In this document: piece after piece, positions 4,939 to 44,649 of the stretch
Position numbering within the stretch: position 1 is the first letter of the stretch
Layout: each line of letters starts with the position of its first letter
From: a virus
Taxonomy: Duplodnaviria > Caudoviricetes
Reading direction: 5' to 3' (one strand)
IMG/VR virus record: IMGVR_UViG_3300021255_005861
Span: 96,001-160,000 of that record
DNA length: 64,000 nt
Notes under the pieces: generated by a model
Told to the model about the DNA's origin: nothing
Databases searched by the model: none
Seen by the model: the letters and a program-made list of their open reading frames with translations, nothing else
Translations under genes and position numbers: made by a program

Positions 4939-5517
4939 ATGAAGCAAGAGTTAAAAATAAGTGAATACGCTAAAAAGGTACGATGCTGTACCCGCACAGT
5001 ATGGAATAAGATATATGCCCATACGATAGATGCCCGTAAGACCGAAAACGGGTGGCGTATTTTTGTTGACGATGGTATCGCAGAGCCTAAATATGCCGTA
5101 TATGCTAGGGTTTCTTCCGCAGAGAACAAGGACAACCTGGAACGGCAGAAACAGCGTTTATTGGACTTTTGCGCAGCTAAGGGATGGCCCGTAGAGAAAT
5201 CCGTCGAAGAGGTTGGATCGGGCTTGAATGACGAACGAAAGAAACTTGCCAAGCTGCTTGCTGACGAGACAATAACGCATATTGTTGTCGAGCACAAGGA
5301 TAGGTTCTCCCGTTTCGGGTTTCGTTATGTAGAACAGCTCCTAAAACAACAAGGCCGCTGTATCGTGGTAATTAACGAGCAGGACAATGAACGGGATGAC
5401 TTGATGGAAGATTTTGTATCTATTATTACGTCGTTTACGGCACGTCTCTATGGCAGGAGACGCTCCCGTAGAAGGACTGAAAAACTTATAGAGGAACTGA
5501 AGAAGGATGATGCCTAG
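4939..5517 (+). CDS. tnpA: IS607 serine recombinase transposase
   Basis: N-terminal HTH, YARVSS catalytic motif, EHKDRFSRFGF. Confidence 0.92.
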   Translation: MKQELKISEYAKKVRCCTRTVWNKIYAHTIDARKTENGWRIFVDDGIAEPKYAVYARVSSAENKDNLERQKQRLLDFCAAKGWPVEKSVEEVGSGLNDERKKLAKLLADETITHIVVEHKDRFSRFGFRYVEQLLKQQGRCIVVINEQDNERDDLMEDFVSIITSFTARLYGRRRSRRRTEKLIEELKKDDA

Positions 5518-6814
5518 AACAGACAAGAATGTGTACGCCTGCAGCTACTCGTTGCCTTTCTATGGCAACGGTAAGTTGCTATGCGAGATGCACAAGGCGA
5601 AATCCCTCTACAATGCCACCTTATGGTACTATCGACAAGCACTTGATGAACACCACCTAGCGAAGGCGGAAGGGCGAAATCCGCTCGTAGAATATCCGAA
5701 TAATTTTGAACTAGAACATAAATTTAGGGAAGAATACCAGGTGAACTTTTTCAGCCTGCCCCAGAAGGTAAGCCAACAGGTTCTACGCGACGTGCAGTCC
5801 GATTGGGCATCTTACGTCGCCCACGTAGTCCGAAACAGGGCATATCCCGAAGATTCTCCCGAACGCAAGGAAAAGATAAACCCACCTAGATACAAGAAGA
5901 AGGACGGGTACGGACGTCTCCGGTATACGATTCAGGCGATATCCTTCAAGAAGTATCCTGGAAAGGCGTGCCCTAGCGGCTTAGATATTGGGTTAGACAT
6001 ACCTCCATTCATAGACCCAAAAAGAATCCAGCAACTCATAATAGAACCCGATGGTGCGGACTATATCCGAGTGACATTTATCTATAGGGTAGACCTTGCT
6101 GAAGAACGAGAGGACAATGGACGGGTAATGGGTATTGACTTGGGCGTAAACAATCTTGCCACATGCGGTACGAATGTAGGCCGGGGCTTGATTATTGACG
6201 GCAAGCCCTTGAAGTCAATGAACCAGTACTTTAACAAGAAACTTGCAAAGATGAAGTCCGATAACGATGCGTTACTGGACAAGGAACTGAAAAGGAAGGT
6301 AGAGACACAAAGACATCACTGTACAAGGAATATCGAACGGCTGTACAGGAAGCGCAGAAACAAAGTTAAGGATTATCTGCACAAGGCATCCTGCTGCATA
6401 TTCGACTATGTAGCATCCAATGACATCACCACGATAGTGGTCGGAAAGAATGTAGGTTGGAAGCAAGAGTGCGATATGGGTGCCCGCAATAACCAGACCT
6501 TTGTACAGATCCCGCATGCCAAGTTCATAGATATCCTTGCCTATAAGGCCCGTGCACATGGGATAATGCTCGTTACTACGGAGGAGTCATACACATCCAA
6601 GTGTTCCTTCATAGACAACGAGGAAATGTGCCATCACGAGCAGTATATGGGAAAGCGTATAAAGCGCGGGTTGTTCCGTACCAAGGAAGGCAGACTGATA
6701 AATGCCGACTTGAACGGGGCGCTCAATATCATAAGAAAAGTAGTCCCCAACGCATTTGCCGAGGGGATAGAGGCGGTTGTAGTTCCGCCAACACGTACCC
6801 TAGTGGCTGCGTGA
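5507..6814 (+). CDS. tnpB: IS607 TnpB RNA-guided nuclease (rearranged RuvC-II)
   Basis: GIDLGVNN, IVVGKN.GWKQ, EESYTSK, NADLNGALNI. Confidence 0.9.
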   Translation: MMPRTDKNVYACSYSLPFYGNGKLLCEMHKAKSLYNATLWYYRQALDEHHLAKAEGRNPLVEYPNNFELEHKFREEYQVNFFSLPQKVSQQVLRDVQSDWASYVAHVVRNRAYPEDSPERKEKINPPRYKKKDGYGRLRYTIQAISFKKYPGKACPSGLDIGLDIPPFIDPKRIQQLIIEPDGADYIRVTFIYRVDLAEEREDNGRVMGIDLGVNNLATCGTNVGRGLIIDGKPLKSMNQYFNKKLAKMKSDNDALLDKELKRKVETQRHHCTRNIERLYRKRRNKVKDYLHKASCCIFDYVASNDITTIVVGKNVGWKQECDMGARNNQTFVQIPHAKFIDILAYKARAHGIMLVTTEESYTSKCSFIDNEEMCHHEQYMGKRIKRGLFRTKEGRLINADLNGALNIIRKVVPNAFAEGIEAVVVPPTRTLVAA

Positions 6815-31996: not shown

Positions 31997-32643
31997 TGAA
32001 CTTCCTCCAGATATCGCTCACTACCAAGTGCAACCTGGCCTGCCCAACGTGCCCGATGGCGGCGTACCGGAATACGGATAACGCCCCGTTCGTGCTTACT
32101 AATGGCAGGCTCCTCCCGTGGATCCGCAAGTACCTCTCCCCACACTCCTGGGTCATCGAACTCACGGGGGGAGAGCCTGCCCTTTATGACGGCATCTCCG
32201 ACCTGCTATATGCACTGGACTCGGAAGGTTACAGGGGGCTCGTCAAGACCAACGGCCTGCTCCCCATACCCAAGACCGACAACTTCATACGCGTTGCCGC
32301 CTTCCACAACCTTGACCGGTTCCCCGTCTACTACGACAAGATACTTATTGTGGACAAGCTGGAACGCGAGGCCAAGGAGGCGTACTGCAAGGAGCACGGC
32401 ATAGACTACCGCGTCATCGGGTTCAACAAGGAGAACCCGGACGGAGCGACGCACGGCTTCGACAAGGTGGCCTACATCGACCCGCACGGACACCAGGTCC
32501 CCTGCCCGTCCTGCCCCATCCAGTACGAAAAACAACCCGACCGCTACACGATCGAGTATCAACGGTTGAAGCCGGGTATGTGCTGCGGGCACTGCAAGGC
32601 GGCGATAGACGCATGGCGCTTCCTGCCCGACTCGTGGAATTGA
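31993..32643 (+). CDS. Radical SAM protein
   Basis: CNLACPTC, ELTGGEP, KTNG. Confidence 0.85.
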   Translation: MMNFLQISLTTKCNLACPTCPMAAYRNTDNAPFVLTNGRLLPWIRKYLSPHSWVIELTGGEPALYDGISDLLYALDSEGYRGLVKTNGLLPIPKTDNFIRVAAFHNLDRFPVYYDKILIVDKLEREAKEAYCKEHGIDYRVIGFNKENPDGATHGFDKVAYIDPHGHQVPCPSCPIQYEKQPDRYTIEYQRLKPGMCCGHCKAAIDAWRFLPDSWN

Positions 32644-34006
32644 ACTATCCCCCACGCTAAAGACATGCGGGATTCCCTAACTTACACAGAAACATTTCCT
32701 GCGATGGTTTCGGGCATTCTCGGTGTAATCCGAGCATTTTTAAGGACTTCGGTAGGTTCCCTTCCTAATGTCCGTTTGACTCCTAGATACAGAATATTAC
32801 GTGCAGCGTTCACATCCCTATCGTGCTGTACGTTGCATACGGGGCATACCCACTGATTCACACCTAACACGACAGCCGTATTTATATTCCCGCACACGTT
32901 ACAGGTCTTGCTTGTGTATTGTGCAGGCACCTTTACAAGGTTCGTCTTATAGGACAGGTATTGCCGAAGCAACCCAAATCCTTGGTCGCCAACAGTCTTA
33001 CCGTGTTCTAGCTCCGAAGCCATCTTGGATAGATCGATGTCCTCCATGAACACGTATTGGTATTTGTTGGCTAACTCCCGGCTAACCTTGTGAAGCCAAT
33101 CCTTACGTTGGTTGGCTACTTTTTCGTATAGCCTCGCCACTTTAAGTCTGGCTTTTTGATATCGGTGGGATTGTTCGTTCTTTCCATTGACGAACCGGTT
33201 GGACTGGATTTGCTGGTATTTCGCTAGCTGCTTTTCCTTACGCTTCAAGAAACGGGGGCACTTGATTTTCGTGCCGTCGCTCAAAGTGAGGAAAGAATCG
33301 GAGTTGCAGTTCCAATCTATGCCTACGGCTTTTCCATTTTGTATTTTCTTAATATCTTTAGTTTCTACACAAATCTTGACATACCATTTTCCACTTGCAG
33401 ACCGCTTAAAGGTAATGTTCTTCCATCTACCCTTGCAGAACTGCGAAGACGCATGGAGGGGTATATAGCCAAGCCTACGAGATATGAACAGCCCTTTTGA
33501 ATTGATGTGGGCTACATTTCTTTGCAATGCATACCTAAACGATGCCTTGGAGTTCTTTTTGCTCTTGAAGGTTGGTGGTTGCATAGGCTTTCCCTTGCGG
33601 GTACCCTTGAGAGATGCAAAGAAATTCGTATATGCTCCACGGACATCGCTCCATGTTTGTCCAAGTGGCACGGAATCCACTTCCTTAATCCACTCCAATG
33701 CTTCGGGCTTGAACTTCATGAACGTAGGCTTGTAGCCCTCAATAGGCATACTGTGGTCTTTGTTCTTGTTCTCCACCACCAGGTTGTAATACAGACGACA
33801 AAGACCAAGTGTCTTGTTGAAGATAGACACTTGTTCCTTGGTTGGATAGATTCTGTATTCGTAAGCTTTGTTCATAAGTTTATGTAAACTTTGACTATAC
33901 TTTAAATATGCATAAGGTTTTTAGAATTTGCAATAGGTTTATTCAAAAATCTGGGCGATTCATTTTACAGGCACTAAAAATTTGTGAGTATTCTCGTTAC
34001 ATTTCT
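32640..34006 (-). mobile_element. IS200/IS605-family tnpB-only element
   Basis: Right-end hairpin ending gatagttcaa; degenerate left hairpin; TTAT target motif. Confidence 0.8.
32682..33875 (-). CDS. tnpB: TnpB RNA-guided nuclease
   Basis: KAYEYRIYPT, GIDWN, FMEDI, CNVC..CPVC, HDRDVNAARN. Confidence 0.92.
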   Translation of the reverse strand: MNKAYEYRIYPTKEQVSIFNKTLGLCRLYYNLVVENKNKDHSMPIEGYKPTFMKFKPEALEWIKEVDSVPLGQTWSDVRGAYTNFFASLKGTRKGKPMQPPTFKSKKNSKASFRYALQRNVAHINSKGLFISRRLGYIPLHASSQFCKGRWKNITFKRSASGKWYVKICVETKDIKKIQNGKAVGIDWNCNSDSFLTLSDGTKIKCPRFLKRKEKQLAKYQQIQSNRFVNGKNEQSHRYQKARLKVARLYEKVANQRKDWLHKVSRELANKYQYVFMEDIDLSKMASELEHGKTVGDQGFGLLRQYLSYKTNLVKVPAQYTSKTCNVCGNINTAVVLGVNQWVCPVCNVQHDRDVNAARNILYLGVKRTLGREPTEVLKNARITPRMPETIAGNVSV

Positions 34007-34179
34007 ATAACTTCTTTATATTCAATAATAAAGTTCTGATGCCACCACGAGTTAATCGTGAGCGCGTTGTTGCACTTGCCGTTGAGCCACAGGAAGTACG
34101 GGCCCTTGTCGGCGTGTTCCAACCCGTGCGTTGCGGTGAAGCCTATTCTATGTACGTTGCTCAATCCTAGATTTTTCAT
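33997..34179 (-). CDS. Free-standing C5-MTase TRD-like microprotein
   Basis: NGKCNNALTINSWWHQNFIIEY; ATGA-coupled to the upstream gene. Confidence 0.55.
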   Translation of the reverse strand: MKNLGLSNVHRIGFTATHGLEHADKGPYFLWLNGKCNNALTINSWWHQNFIIEYKEVIEM

Positions 34180-34337
34180 CGCAAGTCCTTGTACAAAATG
34201 ACCTTGATCTTGTTTCCGCTGCCCTCGCTGGATTTCAGTGCGTAGCACTTGCCCGCCGGATCCACGACGTTCTGCTCAAAGTGCCAACCGTAGGGCGTCA
34301 TGTCCTTCAGCGGCGTAATGACGTTGCCGCCATTCAT
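34176..34337 (-). CDS. Free-standing C5-MTase TRD-like microprotein (53 aa)
   Basis: GWHFEQNVVDPAGKCYALKSSEGSGNKIKVILY; ATGA-coupled to the helicase stop. Confidence 0.6.
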   Translation of the reverse strand: MNGGNVITPLKDMTPYGWHFEQNVVDPAGKCYALKSSEGSGNKIKVILYKDLR

Positions 34338-35794
34338 CGCCTCCTCCTCGGGCTGCCCCTACGCGGTGCCCTCTCATCAGATTCCTCGTCGTGGTATTCC
34401 TCTTCCTGACCCATGTCCACTCTCGACAGCAACTTGAAGTCGAGGTACGGCCTCCCGATGGCGAGGCACGACGTGCATACCACCTGGTCTATGCAGGGAG
34501 CGCCGTCACGCGAGGTTTCGCAGGCCACTCGGCATATCCCCCTGGCCTTCTCCTCCATGGAGTGGTTCAGCGTTATCAGCTTGGTCACGTGAGCCACCTT
34601 TCGGATATCTTCGGCCACGTCCGCCGCTCCGACGTCCTTGTTGCCGCCCACGGTCTGCCTGCCGGTTTGCGATGCGGTCACCAGTACGCCCTTGCGCTCC
34701 GACGCCAGACCTCTCAAACCCTTCCACGTGGTGTTGATGCGGTCGCGTTCCGAGTCTCCTCGCCCGAGGTCCATGATATCCGCGTAGTCCACGACTATCA
34801 CCTCGGGTACGAAGTTCTCGTACACCTCCATGTCCTTGAGTTCCGCCTGCAACCCGCGCACCGTGAGCGAGTTCGTCGGGTAGTTCCTCAGTTCCAGCCT
34901 TCCCCCGCGGCTCATCTTCCGCAGGTCCCGCATGTCCTTCGCTATGCGCTCGTCGGACACGTCCACGCGACGGGTCGTGGCCACCCCGTCCACGATACGG
35001 AACACGCCCTCGTCGCACTCCTGGAACTCCGGCCACGGGGCCTCCTCCCCGTACCTGCTCCTGCCCTGCAGCATCTGCCAGAACCTGCGCACCATCTGCT
35101 TCTTGGACATCTCCAGGGAAACGAACAGCACCGCCTTGCCCTGCAAGGCCGCCTGCATCGCGATGACCATGAGCCACCACGTCTTGCTCGACTTGGGGGG
35201 ACCGATGACCGCGACGAAGTCCTCGCGGATGAACGGGCCGATGACCCTGCCGAGTTCCCCCGGCATCTCGAACACAACGTCCTCCTCGTCGTCGAAGGCG
35301 GAGGACACCGCCTCCACGTCGCCGAACATGTCCACGACCTCGGTCTTGCGGATCTCGGGCTTCACGAAGTCCGCTATAGCGTGGAAGCCCCCGCTCACGT
35401 CGTTGGCCTGCACCGCACGTGATAGCCGGTCGGAGAGAACGGCGAGCGACCGCCCCTGGAAGAACTTCAGCGCCATCTCCTCGGCCATGCCCTCGTTCGT
35501 GGGAAGCCACTCGTCGGAGCAGGACTGGAGGAAGGTGTAGACCATCTCCGCGTCCGCGTCCTTGAGCTCGGACGCCCGCTGGCGGTACAAGTCGCTTATC
35601 GCGCCCTTCGGGGCCTCTCCGCACTTGTCGTAGAAGTCCCATACCCACGTGGACACTATCTTTCCCAGCGTGGTCTCGAACAGGGTTGGGTCGCCCACCT
35701 TCCGGCACCTACCGAGGAGCGTGGTGGACATGATTAGGTTTGAAAGTACTCTGCGTTCAACGGATATGTCTATCTTCTCGCGGCGTAGGGGCAT
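34334..35794 (-). CDS. DnaB-like replicative helicase
   Basis: Walker A variant GPPKSSKT, SLEM, VVDYAD, TASQ. Confidence 0.88.
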   Translation of the reverse strand: MPLRREKIDISVERRVLSNLIMSTTLLGRCRKVGDPTLFETTLGKIVSTWVWDFYDKCGEAPKGAISDLYRQRASELKDADAEMVYTFLQSCSDEWLPTNEGMAEEMALKFFQGRSLAVLSDRLSRAVQANDVSGGFHAIADFVKPEIRKTEVVDMFGDVEAVSSAFDDEEDVVFEMPGELGRVIGPFIREDFVAVIGPPKSSKTWWLMVIAMQAALQGKAVLFVSLEMSKKQMVRRFWQMLQGRSRYGEEAPWPEFQECDEGVFRIVDGVATTRRVDVSDERIAKDMRDLRKMSRGGRLELRNYPTNSLTVRGLQAELKDMEVYENFVPEVIVVDYADIMDLGRGDSERDRINTTWKGLRGLASERKGVLVTASQTGRQTVGGNKDVGAADVAEDIRKVAHVTKLITLNHSMEEKARGICRVACETSRDGAPCIDQVVCTSCLAIGRPYLDFKLLSRVDMGQEEEYHDEESDERAPRRGSPRRRR

Positions 35795-35858
35795 GCGTAA
35801 AAACTCTGGGGTGGCGATGTAAAACTTGAAATGGGCACGCCCGAGAGCGTGCCCTTCC

Positions 35859-35878
35859 AATATAGCAAGGCGGCAAAA
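35859..35878 (-). promoter_or_regulatory. Phage promoter motif TTTTGCC-N4-YGCTATAWT
   Basis: Seven copies: here, 39227, 41403, 43281, 49969, 56383, 57168. Confidence 0.75.
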
Positions 35879-36038
35879 TCAGTTATTTCTTACTTGACGT
35901 AAGATTCTCTATTGGGGTAGTTTTCCCGAAGTGGTGCGTGTCGTAGTAGCGCAGTTCCTCCTTGGACAGCGTGTTGGGGACGATTTTGTGTCCTGCCGCG
36001 AGCAGGCTCTTTTCTAGTTCTTTCGCATTCAGCATAGT

Positions 36039-38198
36039 CTATCCTTTAGGGACGCGGATTCCCTTCCTCTCCATTATCTCGGTCAATAGGTCTATATCCG
36101 CGGCTTCCTTGCCGTCCACGAGCCCGTCTAGCATCTTGGCACGGTTGTCCAGGATTTCCATAGCCTCCATGTCGATAGTCCCGTTGGCAACGAGATAGTA
36201 TGCCGTTACGGGCTTCGTCTGCCCTGAACGAGATAGGCGATCCGTTGCCTGCCGGTGGAAGTTCGGCGTGTGGGCGAACTCGGCGAAGGCACAGTGGCTG
36301 CATACATGCTGAAGTCCGTCGATACCGACACCCCCGCTCTGGATGTTGGCCACGAGCAGGCGGCAGTCCTCGTCCTTGATGAACATGTCCTTGGCCGTCT
36401 CCCTCTCGCTGGCGGTCATTCCCCCGTATATCTTGGCGGGCTTCCACGGTTTCATCTGCGAGCAGAGCAGATCCACCACGTCACGATGCCACGCAAAGAG
36501 CAATAGCTTCTCCCCGGACTGGAGGAAGCAGTCCACCCAGTCCTCCAAAGCCTTCTCTTTGAGCGTGAAGGCGGTGTGCAGTAGCCCCGCGATGCGGTTC
36601 CTCATGCCCGAGAGTTCCGTGCCCCCGCCGAATACGGAGGCCTCCTCCTCGGCATACGCCTTCATGGCATCGGGATCGGTCTCTAGCGGCACCACCTCTA
36701 TCGTCTTGGGGGGCAGATCCTTCATCACGTCCTGCTTCGTGCGCCTCAGCATGCAGTTCACGATGGCGCGGTGGAGCTGGTCGGCGTTGGTCACCCCGTT
36801 GAAGGTCATGCCGTACCCGTTGTTCTTCGGGTCGCAGTAGGTGTATAGATACTTGTAGTAGTCGGGGAATACGTCCGGCATCATTATGTTGAGGCACGGC
36901 CAGAACTGGGCGGGGCGGGACATCGCGGGGGTGCCGCTCATCGCTATCACCTCACGTGTAATCTTCGCCAGGGCCATGAACGCCATCGAGCGTATGGACT
37001 TGGGGTTGCCTATCGCCTGCACCTCGTCCCCTACCAGCAACATTAAATTTAGCCTAGTCAGCTGGCCGTCTGCAATAAATCTCAACTTGCCGTCCTTGGT
37101 CTTCTCGGTATGTCCTACCCAGTCGGCAAGGATGTCCCAGTTGATTATGTACGTCTTGTCCGGGGACAGCTCGTGTGGGGTCTTGCCGTACAGCACCTCG
37201 GGCTTCGGGAACGTCCCCTCCACCTTCGAGAGCCACGCTTCGTATGCGTTCTTCCACTGCAGTTTCGTCGGGGCGTTGACCACGTAGAGGGCGGGGAAGG
37301 ACTGGGCGTAGACCATCCACGCGAGCGCCTCCACGGTCTTGCCGCAGTTGTGCACCACGATCCGGTTCGCCACGAAGTTGGCGTGCTCCAGCACCTTCAC
37401 GTCGTAGGTCATCCGCATCCCGCAGGGATACACGGAGTCAACCCTCGCGTAGTCCTCCTCCCCGTCTATGCGAACCCTGCACCCCAAGAGCTTCTCCGCC
37501 TCCACGTACCCGTAGTCAGTAAGAACTCGGTGGTCGTGCGTGGCTATCAGGAACTTGCCATTATCCAGGGTGACGTGTACGCACCCCTTGATGCCGCTCT
37601 CTATGACATCTACAATTTCTCCGTATCCGAGAGTGCCGTCGGCGAGGACGCACTTGATTTTCCACTGTTTGTCCTCGGTGTACTTGCGGTGCAGGGTTTC
37701 CAGGGACATCCCTACTACCTTCTCGCCCGTGTCGATATGCACGAGCATGTCGCCCGAGATGCATCCCATCTCGTCGCCGAGCAGCACCCTTCCGTGCCTT
37801 ACCTGGCAGAACTTGAGGAAATCCACTTGATACGGGCGCAGGCCGGGGAGCAGCGTAGCCCCCGGTATTAGCCCCATCCGGTCTATCTTCGCCCGTTGCT
37901 CTTCCAACGGGTCGGGAAGGTCGGCCTTCTCCACGGGGGGATCTGGCGCGGGCCATCCCGACATGAACAGCCACTCCCGCGTCTTGTCGTCCCACGGGAG
38001 TTCCCACAGCTTGGTCAGCGTGTTGTAGTTGCGGACGGGCAATGCCTTTATGGCGGCGAGAATGAGTTTCCACGTGTCCCTGTCGGGGCAATTCCACCCT
38101 ACCTCCACCTTCTCGTTTCCGGGGAGCATACGGGCGGTATACCTGCATCCGGGTACAGGCGATATCGGGGGCGGGAATCGGGTTTTCTTCGGGTACAT
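36039..38198 (-). CDS. SNF2/HARP-like helicase with mini-intein
   Basis: DEMG-[intein]-CGKT, DEVQ, SGTP, GVGIDGLQ, QATDRLSR. Confidence 0.9.
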   Translation of the reverse strand: MYPKKTRFPPPISPVPGCRYTARMLPGNEKVEVGWNCPDRDTWKLILAAIKALPVRNYNTLTKLWELPWDDKTREWLFMSGWPAPDPPVEKADLPDPLEEQRAKIDRMGLIPGATLLPGLRPYQVDFLKFCQVRHGRVLLGDEMGCISGDMLVHIDTGEKVVGMSLETLHRKYTEDKQWKIKCVLADGTLGYGEIVDVIESGIKGCVHVTLDNGKFLIATHDHRVLTDYGYVEAEKLLGCRVRIDGEEDYARVDSVYPCGMRMTYDVKVLEHANFVANRIVVHNCGKTVEALAWMVYAQSFPALYVVNAPTKLQWKNAYEAWLSKVEGTFPKPEVLYGKTPHELSPDKTYIINWDILADWVGHTEKTKDGKLRFIADGQLTRLNLMLLVGDEVQAIGNPKSIRSMAFMALAKITREVIAMSGTPAMSRPAQFWPCLNIMMPDVFPDYYKYLYTYCDPKNNGYGMTFNGVTNADQLHRAIVNCMLRRTKQDVMKDLPPKTIEVVPLETDPDAMKAYAEEEASVFGGGTELSGMRNRIAGLLHTAFTLKEKALEDWVDCFLQSGEKLLLFAWHRDVVDLLCSQMKPWKPAKIYGGMTASERETAKDMFIKDEDCRLLVANIQSGGVGIDGLQHVCSHCAFAEFAHTPNFHRQATDRLSRSGQTKPVTAYYLVANGTIDMEAMEILDNRAKMLDGLVDGKEAADIDLLTEIMERKGIRVPKG
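37347..37763 (-). other. Mini-intein (139 aa) in the helicase Walker A motif
   Basis: CISGD...THDHRV...VVHN/C. Confidence 0.9.
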
Positions 38199-40308: not shown

Positions 40309-40683
40309 ATGGAAAAGAAAAGAAAGACTGCAGGCCCGAGGCATCCGGGCAAGGACAAGTACCCGGTGCATCACGAGGCCGAGACTATAACCATTCCACG
40401 CGCCGAATACGACGCGATGGTGGAGGAACTGCGGGACAGGCGCATGCGTGCCAACCGCAGGTGGATATCCACCGATACGAGGCTCCCGGATCCCGAGGAG
40501 TACGTAATCGTGTACGGGTCGGACTGGTGGAATGGTGGCAGTTACGCGATGCTGAAGGTAATGAAGGAACGTGGCCCGTTCGGTGAGATTCAGTGGTCGG
40601 ACGGGAACGGTCCCGTGTCCGTTGAGGACATCTCGTACTGGACGCATTTTCCCGCAGCCCCGCGAGGTAGAGATGGAAATTAA
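40309..40683 (+). CDS. DUF551-like protein
   Basis: WISTDTRLPD...SYWTHFPAAP. Confidence 0.7.
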   Translation: MEKKRKTAGPRHPGKDKYPVHHEAETITIPRAEYDAMVEELRDRRMRANRRWISTDTRLPDPEEYVIVYGSDWWNGGSYAMLKVMKERGPFGEIQWSDGNGPVSVEDISYWTHFPAAPRGRDGN

Positions 40684-41398
40684 GGGAAAGGTACACTGCT
40701 TATTCGAACAATCTGGGGTATTCAAGAACCAGTTCAAGGAACTCGGGTACGAGGCTTTCGACTACGACATCCAAAACCACTTCCACGAGACCGACCACGT
40801 GGTGGATCTGTTCAAGGCGATAGAGGACGCCTACGACGGGAAGCCGAGCCTCTTCGACGACATCACGCCCGACGACCTCATCATGGCGTTCTTCCCTTGC
40901 ATCTACTTCTCGTGCATGAGCCAGATGCTCATAAGTTACACGCACCGCAACTACACGAATTACTCGCCAAAGGAGCGCTTCGACGCCATCCTCCAGCGTT
41001 CGGCGAACCGCGAGCTGTTCTTCTCCCGCGCCGTTAAGATGCTGGCCGTGGCGAAGATCCGGGGCCTTAGGATAATCATGGAGAACCCGTGGAGCGAGCA
41101 GACGTTTCTCAAGCAGAACTTCCCGTTCAACCCCAGCGTCGTGGACATGAACCGGACGCTCCGCGGCGACTACTACGTGAAGCCTACCGCCTACTGGTTC
41201 ATCAACTGCGAGCCAACGAACGGGCAGACGCTACAGCCACGGAAGCCGGGGAAGAATATCTGCCAGGTAGCCCCCAACGGGATGCCCGGAATCTGTAACG
41301 AGGAACGCAGCCTCATACACCCGGACTACGCCCGCAACTTCATCTGCGACTTCGTGCTCGGGAAACGGCAGGAATTTGGGCAACTCTCGCTCTTCTAA
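40673..41398 (+). CDS. Divergent phage C5 DNA methyltransferase-like protein
   Basis: CLFEQSG, FFPC, MENP, KPT motifs; ends QLSLF. Confidence 0.7.
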   Translation: MEIKGKVHCLFEQSGVFKNQFKELGYEAFDYDIQNHFHETDHVVDLFKAIEDAYDGKPSLFDDITPDDLIMAFFPCIYFSCMSQMLISYTHRNYTNYSPKERFDAILQRSANRELFFSRAVKMLAVAKIRGLRIIMENPWSEQTFLKQNFPFNPSVVDMNRTLRGDYYVKPTAYWFINCEPTNGQTLQPRKPGKNICQVAPNGMPGICNEERSLIHPDYARNFICDFVLGKRQEFGQLSLF

Positions 41399-41452: not shown

Positions 41453-42562
41453 ATGGGAATACGAGTATTGAGCCTTTTCGACGGCATGGGTTGCGGCAGG
41501 ATAGCCCTGGAGGAACTCGGAGTCAAGGTGGACACGTACTACGCGTCGGAGGTAGACAAGAACGCCATCGCAATGGAAACTCTAAACTTCCCGGACACGG
41601 TCTGCCTCGGCGACGTGACTAAGGTGGACGCCCGCAAGCTCGGGCACATCGACCTGCTTATCGGCGGGTCGCCGTGCTTCACTAAGGGACACAAGGTACT
41701 TACCGAGAACGGGGAGAAGAACATCGAGGACATCGTGCTCGGCGACAGGGTGTTGACACACACGGGTTCGTATATGCCCGTAATCGATGTAGGAAGCAAG
41801 TTCTCGGACGACCTTTACGAGATGGTTCTCGCTGACGGGACTACGTATCACGTGACAGGAAACCATCCGTTCTATGCTACTACCGATGGGAAGGTTTTTT
41901 CCTGGGTGGCCTGTTCGGAACTTACCCCGGAACATGGGATACTGAAGGTAGACCGAGTCACGGTCACGCAGTTCAAGGGCAGGGATAGGATACCGGGCGA
42001 TACCGTGTACAACATGACTGTGGACGTGGACCACAGCTACTCGGTTAATAATTACTTTGTACATAATTGCACGAACTTCAGTTTCGCCGGTCGCCGCAAC
42101 GGCATGAATACTACCACGAACGAAGAAATATACTCGCTCGATCGCTATCTTGAACTCAAGCGCGATGGCTTCCAGTTTGACGGCGAGTCCTACCTGTTCT
42201 GGGAGTACATGCGCATCCTCGGGGAACTCCGCGAGACTAACCCGGACGTGTTCTTCTTTTTGGAGAACGTTGAGATGGGTGAGAAGTGGGAATCCGTGCT
42301 GACGAAGGCGATCGGTATTCCCGGCGTGCACGTCAATTCCGCCCTCGTGTCCGCGCAGAACCGCCGTCGCATCTATTGGACTAATATCCGTACGAAGAAT
42401 GGGGGACTGCTCGGGTTCGGGTGGCAGGTACCCGACATCCCGCAGCCCGAGGACAAGGGCATCATGCTCTCGGACGTGCTCGACGACGTAGTGGACAGGA
42501 AGTACTATCTCAAGGACGAGGTGGTGGACAAGCTGCTCGCCAACGGGGTGAAGGGTGCGTAA
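41453..42562 (+). CDS. C5 DNA methyltransferase, N-terminal catalytic part (motifs I-VIII) with intein
   Basis: LFDGMGCG, GGSP-[intein]-C, LENV, QNRRRIYW; stops before the TRD. Confidence 0.9.
   Translation: MGIRVLSLFDGMGCGRIALEELGVKVDTYYASEVDKNAIAMETLNFPDTVCLGDVTKVDARKLGHIDLLIGGSPCFTKGHKVLTENGEKNIEDIVLGDRVLTHTGSYMPVIDVGSKFSDDLYEMVLADGTTYHVTGNHPFYATTDGKVFSWVACSELTPEHGILKVDRVTVTQFKGRDRIPGDTVYNMTVDVDHSYSVNNYFVHNCTNFSFAGRRNGMNTTTNEEIYSLDRYLELKRDGFQFDGESYLFWEYMRILGELRETNPDVFFFLENVEMGEKWESVLTKAIGIPGVHVNSALVSAQNRRRIYWTNIRTKNGGLLGFGWQVPDIPQPEDKGIMLSDVLDDVVDRKYYLKDEVVDKLLANGVKGA
41675..42067 (+). other. Mini-intein (131 aa) at the catalytic PC motif
   Basis: CFTKG...TGNHPF...FVHN/C. Confidence 0.9.
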
Positions 42563-43836
42563 CAAGGCCTTATGTATGCCCTGCCTGCGCTACGGTGTGG
42601 TGGTACCCGAGTCGCAGAAAGTTCCTTGTCTTATATCTACGTACCAGCAGGACAGGTTCTACGACCCCGCGGGCGGGTTGCTCCCTGCGCTGGCTAAAAA
42701 CCTTGAAGGATTTTTGATTTTGGTCTATGAAGAAAGTGCTCGTTAATCCGCTCTTCAACCACCCGGTACACGGATGGCTCACGCTGTTGCAGGCCGAGGA
42801 TAAGTCGTTCTGCCTGTGCGCCAAGTACGCGCATCAGCCACGGTTCGACATCAAGACGTACATTATGGATTATGAGGATGTGGCATGATTAGGTGCACGT
42901 GGAAACAGCAACGCAGCGAGTTCGGGAAGCTCCACCGGCACGAATACGAAAACCTGCACTCGCGGGAATACGGCGGTAGGCAGGCCATGAAGGAAAAGGC
43001 GCTCGTGTTCGACAAGTGCGGACCGCTTACGCTCGCCCTCGGCGACAACGTCATCTTGGAACTGGACGAGGTGTAGCCATGTCCGTTAATGTTTTGCGCA
43101 TCCGAAGAAGCGACTACGGGAAAGAGCACCGCAAGGCGTACGAGTACGGGCATTCCCGCGAATACGGCGGGATGCAGTCCATGGTGGAACGCTATCCTAG
43201 TACCGACGGCAAGAGCGGCCCGCTAACGACCGTGCTCAAGGACAACTTAGTGATCCATTATGAGTAGTGCTCGTATATGATTTTGCCCACCCGCTATAAT
43301 GTACGATATGGATAAGATGCCGGTTCTAGTTGGATACAAGTGTGGAGTGACCCCCCCCCATGCAACGGGAAGGCGCCTACACTCACGACGGAACTGGCGC
43401 ACCGGACGAACTCGTACGGCCTGCCCCACGTTTTGATATTTGAGATATTTAATGGAAAAGAACCTTAGAAACCCCCCCCCTCCCCCGGAAAGGAAGGTAC
43501 ATGAAGACTAGCATGCATTTCAGCAAGAGTTACTTCGGCGTGGACACTTGCACGGATCCTGCGTCATCAAAAAGTTGCTGTCTTACGAGCGGGGACTACC
43601 CTACGGTACATGCGGGTGGAGTTGAAGGGTTCTGCAAAAGGACATACTTGTTGGACATTGAGGTACTTGAATGAGGGTCGCATGTAATCCTACATGGAAG
43701 AATGGAATACTCATACCCCCCCCAGAGGAGGAACAAGAGTACTTGCATACAGGCGTTCCTGTGCAAGTGGTTCGTGCCAAGTAAGACTCATGACCTGACG
43801 TTCGTGATGGACTATGAAATTTTAGAAAAGGAATAA
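42555..43836 (+). other. Array of seven TRD-like microgenes (42555-42746, 42727-42888, 42885-43076, 43079-43267, 43308-43468 frameshifted, 43501-43674, 43671-43836 frameshifted)
   Basis: Each has K-x-x-[CTP]-[LI] and a C-terminal hydrophobic strand; starts and stops are coupled. Confidence 0.65.
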
Positions 43837-43839
43837 CCG

Positions 43840-44649
43840 ATGGCATTTTTCGACATGGAAGAGATAAAGCCCAAGGAGGAACCGTCCTCCGACGGGAGAA
43901 TTATAACTCTCAACGGCAAGAAGGTGCACGTCCTCGGTATCCGCAGGCTCACTCCCGCCGAGTGCGCCCGCCTGCAGACCATACCCACGTGGTACGCATG
44001 GTACGGCAACTACGCGGATGAACTCGTGGACGGGGTGTCCACGAAGGGGTATAACGTGGCCCTCGGGCTGCTCTCGTCGGACGTCGTCACCAAGAACGTG
44101 TCCGAGGTGCTCTCCGTCATCCCCGTGGTGGAATCCTCGTGCACGCAGGTCAAGGCGGAGAAGCTCTCCGTGTCCTTCGATACGGACATCCCGGATTCTA
44201 GCGCCCGCTCGGTGTTGTTCGTCAAGGGCAAGGACGAGACGTCGCTCCCCGCCGGGTTTACCCGTGAGGTGGACATGGGAGGGTATCAAGTGTCGGTTAT
44301 GCCTTCCGGCGTGCTGTCGGGCAGGTTGCCGGAGTCTACCGACGAGGTGGGTTTCATCAAGGTGCTCAAGGGCTTGCACGACGAGAGCCCCGTTACGGCG
44401 GTGTCGTACTTGATAGCGTGGTCTCTGTGCCGCGGTATCCTCGCCACGATGCACGGGGTGTCCCTCCGCGTGGACGGGACATGCACGGTCGCGGCAGGCA
44501 GGCTGACGTGGGAACTAACGTCGCTCCGGATTGGGCAGGTCAAGCAGATAAGCGACTCCAGCATATACAAGGCTCTCGGCAACGGGTGGACGGTGGATGT
44601 CGTCAAGCACTTCTTCTCGTTCCTCCCGAAGGAATGGCGTGCGGCGTGA
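43840..44649 (+). CDS. C5 DNA methyltransferase, C-terminal part (motifs IX-X) with a large insertion
   Basis: RRLTPAECARLQT ... YKALGNGWT. Confidence 0.85.
   Translation: MAFFDMEEIKPKEEPSSDGRIITLNGKKVHVLGIRRLTPAECARLQTIPTWYAWYGNYADELVDGVSTKGYNVALGLLSSDVVTKNVSEVLSVIPVVESSCTQVKAEKLSVSFDTDIPDSSARSVLFVKGKDETSLPAGFTREVDMGGYQVSVMPSGVLSGRLPESTDEVGFIKVLKGLHDESPVTAVSYLIAWSLCRGILATMHGVSLRVDGTCTVAAGRLTWELTSLRIGQVKQISDSSIYKALGNGWTVDVVKHFFSFLPKEWRAA

Follow-up and report, generated by a model that had tools for sequence, protein, structure and literature searches.

Two very small open reading frames, here called ORF1 and ORF2, directly follow the gene of a DnaB-like replicative helicase in the phage genome analysed in this study. 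The questions raised by this locus are whether such short frames are genes at all and, if so, whether their products could serve a split cytosine C5 methyltransferase (C5-MTase) encoded elsewhere in the same genome. The analysis was centred on a window of 64,000 nucleotides, i.e. bases 96001-160000 of a 185,666-bp IMG/VR virus record whose completeness is estimated at 85%. The features under discussion are listed in Table 1, and coordinates given without a contig name refer to the window.

Table 1. Position and character of the analysed features within the window
Feature	Position	Strand	Remarks
IS200/IS605-family element, tnpB only	32640-33996	minus	tnpB 32682-33875
ORF2	33997-34179	minus	60 aa; free-standing TRD-type microgene, RIGFTATHG...CNNALTINSWWHQNF type
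ORF1	34176-34337	minus	53 aa; free-standing TRD microgene, GWHFEQN...GSGN type
DnaB-like replicative helicase gene	34334-35860, from TTG (longest ORF)	minus	Pfam DnaB_C, E 1e-11
MTase N half	41453-42562	plus	motifs I-VIII and proximal variable region; mini-intein in motif IV
Seven TRD-type microgenes between the MTase halves	42555-43836	plus	orthologies to L007 array members
MTase C half	43840-44649	plus	motifs IX and X; approximately 180 aa inserted between them

The preliminary description of this DNA had placed two ATGA-coupled ORFs immediately behind the stop codon of the helicase gene. Reading of the minus strand bore this out, and the translations matched those quoted. The TGA of the helicase gene (34334-34336) shares bases with the ATG of ORF1, which is preceded by a ribosome-binding site (GGAGGAGG), and the TGA of ORF1 overlaps the ATG of ORF2 in the same manner (ATGA in both cases). 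The helicase frame is given in Table 1 from its most distant start codon; the ATG used in the related contig L001 would give 34334-35794 and was judged the likelier start. Recoding or read-through was excluded, since the overlaps shift the frame and, under genetic code 11, no disruption affects the long ORFs in the rest of the window. A scan for promoters and terminators gave no signal over the shuffled background, and blastn with the locus returned no match among cultured phages. On the other side of the helicase gene, the gap separating it from an SNF2 helicase gene is a variable slot (window 35883-36035, L001 4996-5978, L006 4959-5147), which is occupied by a 50-aa ORF in the window, by low-GC genes spanning about 1 kb in L001 and, in the phage G001, by an ORF1-type recognition microgene. 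The SNF2 helicase gene of the window (36039-38198, minus strand) carries an intein.

The first question could be approached by comparison with L001, a close relative (88-95% nucleotide identity across the region) with the same arrangement behind its helicase gene. ORF1 differs between the two by 10 synonymous and 3 non-synonymous substitutions (omega 0.065) and the core of ORF2 gave an omega of 0.11-0.13, whereas values of 0.85-3.4 were obtained for the other two frames of the same DNA. The helicase itself is 99% identical at the amino acid level (omega 0.01). In comparisons with L006 and L007, dN reached only 0.1-0.2 and synonymous sites were saturated. Judged by these substitution patterns, ORF1 and ORF2 are genuine genes under purifying selection and, because both the window and L001 carry them behind the helicase gene, this selection operated at a site unlinked to the methyltransferase. 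The earlier view that the two frames are not debris of one broken gene is thus upheld. It was also observed that dS relative to L001 amounts to 0.34-0.55 in the two microgenes (33997-34337), two to three times the value of the adjoining helicase gene (0.18; 34334-35794), a hint that the cassettes turn over or recombine faster.

Regarding the identity of the encoded proteins, the evidence is much more direct for ORF1. A protein search revealed nine clusters of stand-alone homologues (P0003-P0011; 51-90 aa, 74-96% identity), in which the core is invariant, the N-terminal leaders differ and the stop codon is located a few residues past a hydrophobic-acidic strand. All tblastn matches of ORF1 among cultured phages lay inside annotated C5 cytosine methyltransferases, of a Staphylococcus phage at E 2e-7 and of Lactococcus phages at E 1e-5, in each case within the variable region that follows motif VIII; among annotated phage MTases, it is the variable region of P0001 and P0002 that ORF1 matches. 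Similarly, in most of 80 metagenome loci an ORF1-like segment was found downstream of motifs IV, VI and VIII. Motif IX was likewise identified downstream, in the same frame, in about 25 of these loci, and in many loci the ORF1-like segment stops 3-5 residues short of motif IX.

The position of ORF1 relative to the two halves of the phage enzyme was then established by alignment with the approximately 300-aa single-chain enzyme of contig L047, which shares its core subfamily with the split enzyme. Residues 1-75 and 243-357 of the N half align with residues 6-80 and 94-189 of this reference (the gap in the N half being the intein), residues 1-53 of ORF1 with 198-250 (45% identity, pairwise E 6e-14), and residues 34-53 and 237-260 of the C half with 249-268 and 271-294. 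The alignments are ordered and do not overlap; therefore, three separately encoded proteins tile one enzyme. ORF1 represents the segment between motif VIII and motif IX of single-chain enzymes, which is the feature that defines membership of the TRDs, and the similarity to MTase TRDs that had been proposed for it is supported by the tblastn matches, the 80 metagenome loci and the collinearity with L047. Recognition modules of C5-MTases share a conserved T-L-type dipeptide, a weak feature; the A-L-K of ORF1 aligns with T-V-K and T-L-K of P0001 and P0002, although this motif is too short to have statistical weight. Modelling of ORF1 alone with AlphaFold2 yielded an unusable model (pLDDT 58).

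The history of ORF2 is more complex. Compared with L001 and G001, 146 nt are missing from the window (window 34150-34155; L001 7707-7855). This deletion took out a module designated 2a (GWRVF...ALRTTGIQWI type), and ORF2 is a deletion hybrid in which approximately the first 9 codons are derived from 2a and the conserved core from the neighbouring module 2b (ORF2b), now in frame behind the coupled start codon of 2a. The same hybrid structure is present in L016, a metagenome contig identical to the window. The C-terminal tail of ORF2 (E-Y-x-E-V-I-E) is common to L006/G001 and other homologues, and thus ORF2 is intact; on the same grounds, the possibility that the adjacent insertion element had replaced its last codons was rejected.

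Among 1.84 billion representative proteins, a profile built from four ORF2 orthologues found nine relatives: eight short proteins (57-94 aa) and the 127-aa protein P0015, in which an ORF2-type module continues in frame as a motif IX-X half of the same enzyme family. Three long repeat proteins also scored, each of them repeatedly matching one stretch of about 22 residues, and were taken for unrelated repeat matches. No single-chain MTase with an ORF2 module was detected among the 1.84 billion representatives, and tblastn of cultured phages with ORF2b produced chance-level rows only. The assignment of ORF2 as a putative recognition module consequently has only contextual support: the TRD similarity claimed for it is backed by the P0015 fusion and by orthologues in module arrays (see below), but not by any single-chain counterpart. 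An A-L-T motif is invariant in the ORF2 family, but it too is of insufficient length to count statistically. A likeness, noticed by eye, between ORF2 and the final module of P0002, the MTase of a Lactococcus phage, was dropped, as blastp did not support it. The AlphaFold2 model of P0015 reached a pLDDT of 68; Foldseek lists only C5-MTases for it, all with E values of at least 0.03, and its match to residues 216-324 of M.HhaI is weak (VIA, Z 3.3). Searches of PDB sequences with the ORF1 and ORF2 family profiles gave chance-level rows only, and none of the nine microproteins of the phage matched anything in Pfam, even at E 10.

The preliminary description had also stated that ORF1 and ORF2 have the same core and terminal strand as the modules at 42.5-43.8 kb. 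As to the core, this could not be sustained: phmmer comparison of ORF1, ORF2 and the seven array modules gave no cross-family match at E<0.01, and hhalign detected no similarity between the ORF1 and ORF2 families (probability 0.4%). The modules have in common only the brief stretch GK-x-x-(A/T)-L and, at the C-terminus, a hydrophobic-acidic strand, the latter present in 26 of the 28 modules and in 8.5% of control small ORFs, with the reservation that the pattern was defined post hoc.

ORF2 is adjoined by a mobile element whose tnpB product contains the Pfam domains OrfB_IS605, Cas12f1-like_TNB and HTH_OrfB_IS605. Its right end was mapped to 32640; the left end, located at or within a few bases of the ORF2 stop codon, could not be exactly resolved. 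L001 has an empty site. The element meets the requirements for membership of the IS200/IS605 family, i.e. a TnpB with OrfB_IS605 and zinc-ribbon domains, together with presence/absence polymorphism. G001 contains copies of the element (82-85% amino acid identity) and the same junction of ORF2b and element, although its 2b is situated in the array (L006 10035-10144, L008 1453-2691). A TnpB element (85% amino acid identity) thus abuts the stop codon of an ORF2b-type module in two phages, at different genomic sites. In addition, two variants of ORF2b (P0017 and P0018) are interrupted right after 'NNALT', and the continuation of P0017 resembles the right end of the element in reverse. The element may target the ORF2b-type module or travel with it.

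A scan of the whole 185.7-kb record with PF00145 gave a sole match (41459-44010), which indicates a single C5 core and agrees with the earlier remark that there is no MTase catalytic motif near ORF1 and ORF2. With the record approximately 85% complete, a second C5-MTase cannot be strictly excluded. The N half of the enzyme matches the Pfam profiles DNA_methylase (E 2e-22) and Hint_2 and is collinear with residues 6-189 of the L047 enzyme, and the C half corresponds to positions 268-298 of the DNA_methylase profile and to L047 residues 249-294. A recognition module is absent from both: the proximal variable segment is the last part of the N half, and the C half starts just before motif IX. The phage enzyme therefore shows the core split of the M.AquI type (separate motif I-VIII and motif IX-X polypeptides). 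It does not show the tandem modules in one polypeptide that are typical of M.SPRI, as each microgene has its own start and stop. ORF1 and ORF2 are located 7-10 kb from the MTase halves, on the opposite strand. A six-frame translation of the whole record, scanned with 28 module queries, revealed no module beyond the seven of the array, ORF1 and ORF2, so that the total of nine given previously is confirmed.

Some further features of the MTase locus were noted. The MTase intein is small in the window, far larger in G001 (L006 6922-8658) and absent from L007 (2306-3085). Relative to its L007 counterpart (98 aa; 5820-6116), the C half of the window phage has about 180 extra residues between motifs IX and X. 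Just upstream of the N half lies an ORF of 275 aa (40571-41398), whose F-P-C and E-N-P recall motifs IV and VI; it had no Pfam match at E 0.01.

Analysis of related phages and metagenome loci revealed that the modules are not confined to one genomic position. The 33-kb contig L007 carries 17 microgenes between an MTase N half and its short C half, among them orthologues of ORF1 (4995-5168), ORF2b (5309-5503) and 2a. In G001 (215 kb), the main array includes 2a and 2b as direct neighbours (ORF2b orthologue at L006 9919-10095), and the ORF1 orthologue is placed outside the array, between the SNF2 and DnaB genes. Thus, the same cassettes occupy different sites in related phages. Overall, free modules were found inside arrays in L007, L052, L070 and L073, and outside arrays in the window, L001 and G001.

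The enzymes of this group are organized in several ways: (i) L047, L068 and L075 encode single-chain C5-MTases of about 300 aa with the same core subfamily, (ii) L050 and L054 encode two-piece enzymes in which an ORF1-type module starts the small subunit, (iii) L051 has an array whose final module is fused to the C half, and (iv) L070 (1585-2583) and L073 (501-1775) encode a circularly permuted C5-MTase (order module-IX-X-I-IV-VI-VIII) with free recognition microgenes on both sides. Independent lineages with free modules are represented by L051 and L052, whose arrays end in a C half, and by L070 and L073. In L050, L054, L051 and P0015 one subunit contains the recognition region, but not in the window phage. 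This set forms a natural continuum, with single-chain enzymes at one end, free modules at the other and two-piece enzymes in between. The permuted enzyme of L073 additionally has about 110 extra residues just ahead of motif IX.

Because orthologues of the two microgenes occur in MTase arrays, ORF1 is homologous to and collinear with a segment of single-chain enzymes, both genes are under selection and the genome has a single C5 core, we favour the reading that the microproteins act in trans with the split C5-MTase. We put its probability at roughly 0.65; it is an inference, and there are no interaction or activity data. According to this model, translation of ORF1 and ORF2 would be coupled to that of the helicase gene, and each microprotein would bind non-covalently between the N and C halves, completing a small DNA-binding domain, with the shared hydrophobic-acidic C-terminal strand as the likely docking element. 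Each module would confer its own sequence specificity on the common core, so that one catalytic core could acquire nine alternative specificities, and such multiple specificities might shield the DNA of the phage against several restriction systems of its hosts. The assembly of three pieces, the methylation activity, the specificities of the modules and docking by the tail are inferred only, and we know of no experimental precedent for a three-piece assembly of a C5-MTase. The broader proposal, to which we give slightly better than even chances, is that of a three-part C5-MTase whose specificity resides in interchangeable subunits of 50-60 residues encoded anywhere in the genome, the microgenes being movable cassettes that are relocated, deleted or fused, possibly with the aid of TnpB.

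Purifying selection shows merely that the proteins have some function and does not identify it. The microproteins might act independently of the phage methylase, as DNA binders or regulators, or as competitors that tune or block phage or host C5-MTases; the placement of ORF1 and ORF2 in the helicase operon, away from the MTase genes, and the lack of a predicted fold of its own in an isolated module would fit such a role. We regard it as unlikely, since the L007 and G001 orthologues lie between MTase halves, the same module types are found in motif IX-X fusions and in single-chain enzymes, and every longer contig inspected that has free modules also has an adjacent split or permuted C5-MTase.

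More doubtful still is the idea that the modules are merely stored as DNA-level cassettes, moved by recombination or deletion to the C half, where the fused copy alone would be active. Mobility of this kind is suggested by the variable module positions among relatives, the 146-nt deletion that joined two modules in the window genome, the module-C-half fusions of P0015, P0023 and L051, and the TnpB element abutting an ORF2b-type module in two genomes. Against this idea stand the features of each cassette, namely its own start, ribosome-binding site and stop, translational coupling, and selection on the whole ORF at an unlinked site; moreover, in the window genome and L007 there is no in-frame module at the halves that could serve as an expression site, and neither inverted repeats nor sites of recombination came to notice. 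Finally, the reading of ORF1 and ORF2 as decaying fragments of a former multispecific methylase gene beside the helicase, to which the shortness of the ORFs, their recognition-module similarity without a catalytic motif nearby, the deletion in ORF2 and the adjoining insertion element could be counted, is largely refuted by omega values of 0.07-0.13 in frame as against about 1-3 out of frame, by the conservation of the ORF1 start and of a stop just past the tail in homologues from several phages (74-96% identity), and by a 146-nt deletion that left a full conserved core and a coupled start codon.

To our knowledge, recognition modules of C5-MTases have been known only inside the enzyme polypeptide, and our literature search, which did not cover many subscription journals, found no description of free-standing ones; already known are phage enzymes made multispecific by tandem modules, as well as two-subunit enzymes. 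If the free, distant modules are functional, C5-MTases have exchangeable specificity subunits, as Type I systems do. The locus behind the helicase gene provides the cleanest natural argument for such subunits, because its genes are selected while being physically and transcriptionally apart from the catalytic halves, a separation which rules out read-through or fusion with them. Action in trans, if true, would account for the ability of large phages to methylate many motifs by means of a single core and would offer a compact scaffold for programmable m5C writers; under the three-part reading, a phage could renew its anti-restriction repertoire gene by gene. The locus is also a warning for annotation, as ORFs of <60 aa beside replication genes can be real.

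Among known systems, the multispecific C5-MTases of Bacillus temperate phages (M.SPRI, M.Phi3TI, M.Rho11sI and M.H2I), described by Trautner, Noyer-Weidner and colleagues, offer a close parallel in function. They carry tandem modules in one polypeptide, between motifs VIII and IX. The phage system resembles them in having one core with several short, independent and interchangeable modules, in being phage-encoded and, presumably, in protecting against several host restriction enzymes. It differs in that the modules are separate genes, two of which are found 7-10 kb away, on the other strand, in the helicase operon. The S subunits of Type I systems are proteins of about 400 aa with two recognition domains, which direct N6-adenine methylation and owe their diversity mostly to recombination within hsdS. 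The likeness to them, including multi-hsdS loci, concerns the principle of a separate specificity subunit with a shared methylase and not homology, as the fold and enzyme class are unrelated.

In C5-MTases, target recognition and catalysis are for the most part assigned to two separate domains (PMC2790894). M.AquI and M.EcoHK31I function as two polypeptides, and fragment complementation has been described for M.BspRI, M.BsuRI, M.HhaI and M.SssI (PMC3404938). The phage enzyme shares with M.AquI and M.EcoHK31I a core split into motif I-VIII and motif IX-X pieces that would assemble non-covalently (in the phage this assembly is inferred), and the enzymes of L050 and L054 are of the M.AquI type. 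M.AquI and M.EcoHK31I, however, consist of two pieces with a single specificity and a recognition region in one subunit, whereas for the phage a third, exchangeable piece is inferred. Close counterparts in sequence are the single-chain enzymes of L047, L068 and L075, along which the N half, ORF1 and the C half tile at 37-59%, 45% and 50-70% identity, respectively. What these enzymes accomplish with one chain and one module is distributed in the window phage over three genes, with an intein and eight further modules.
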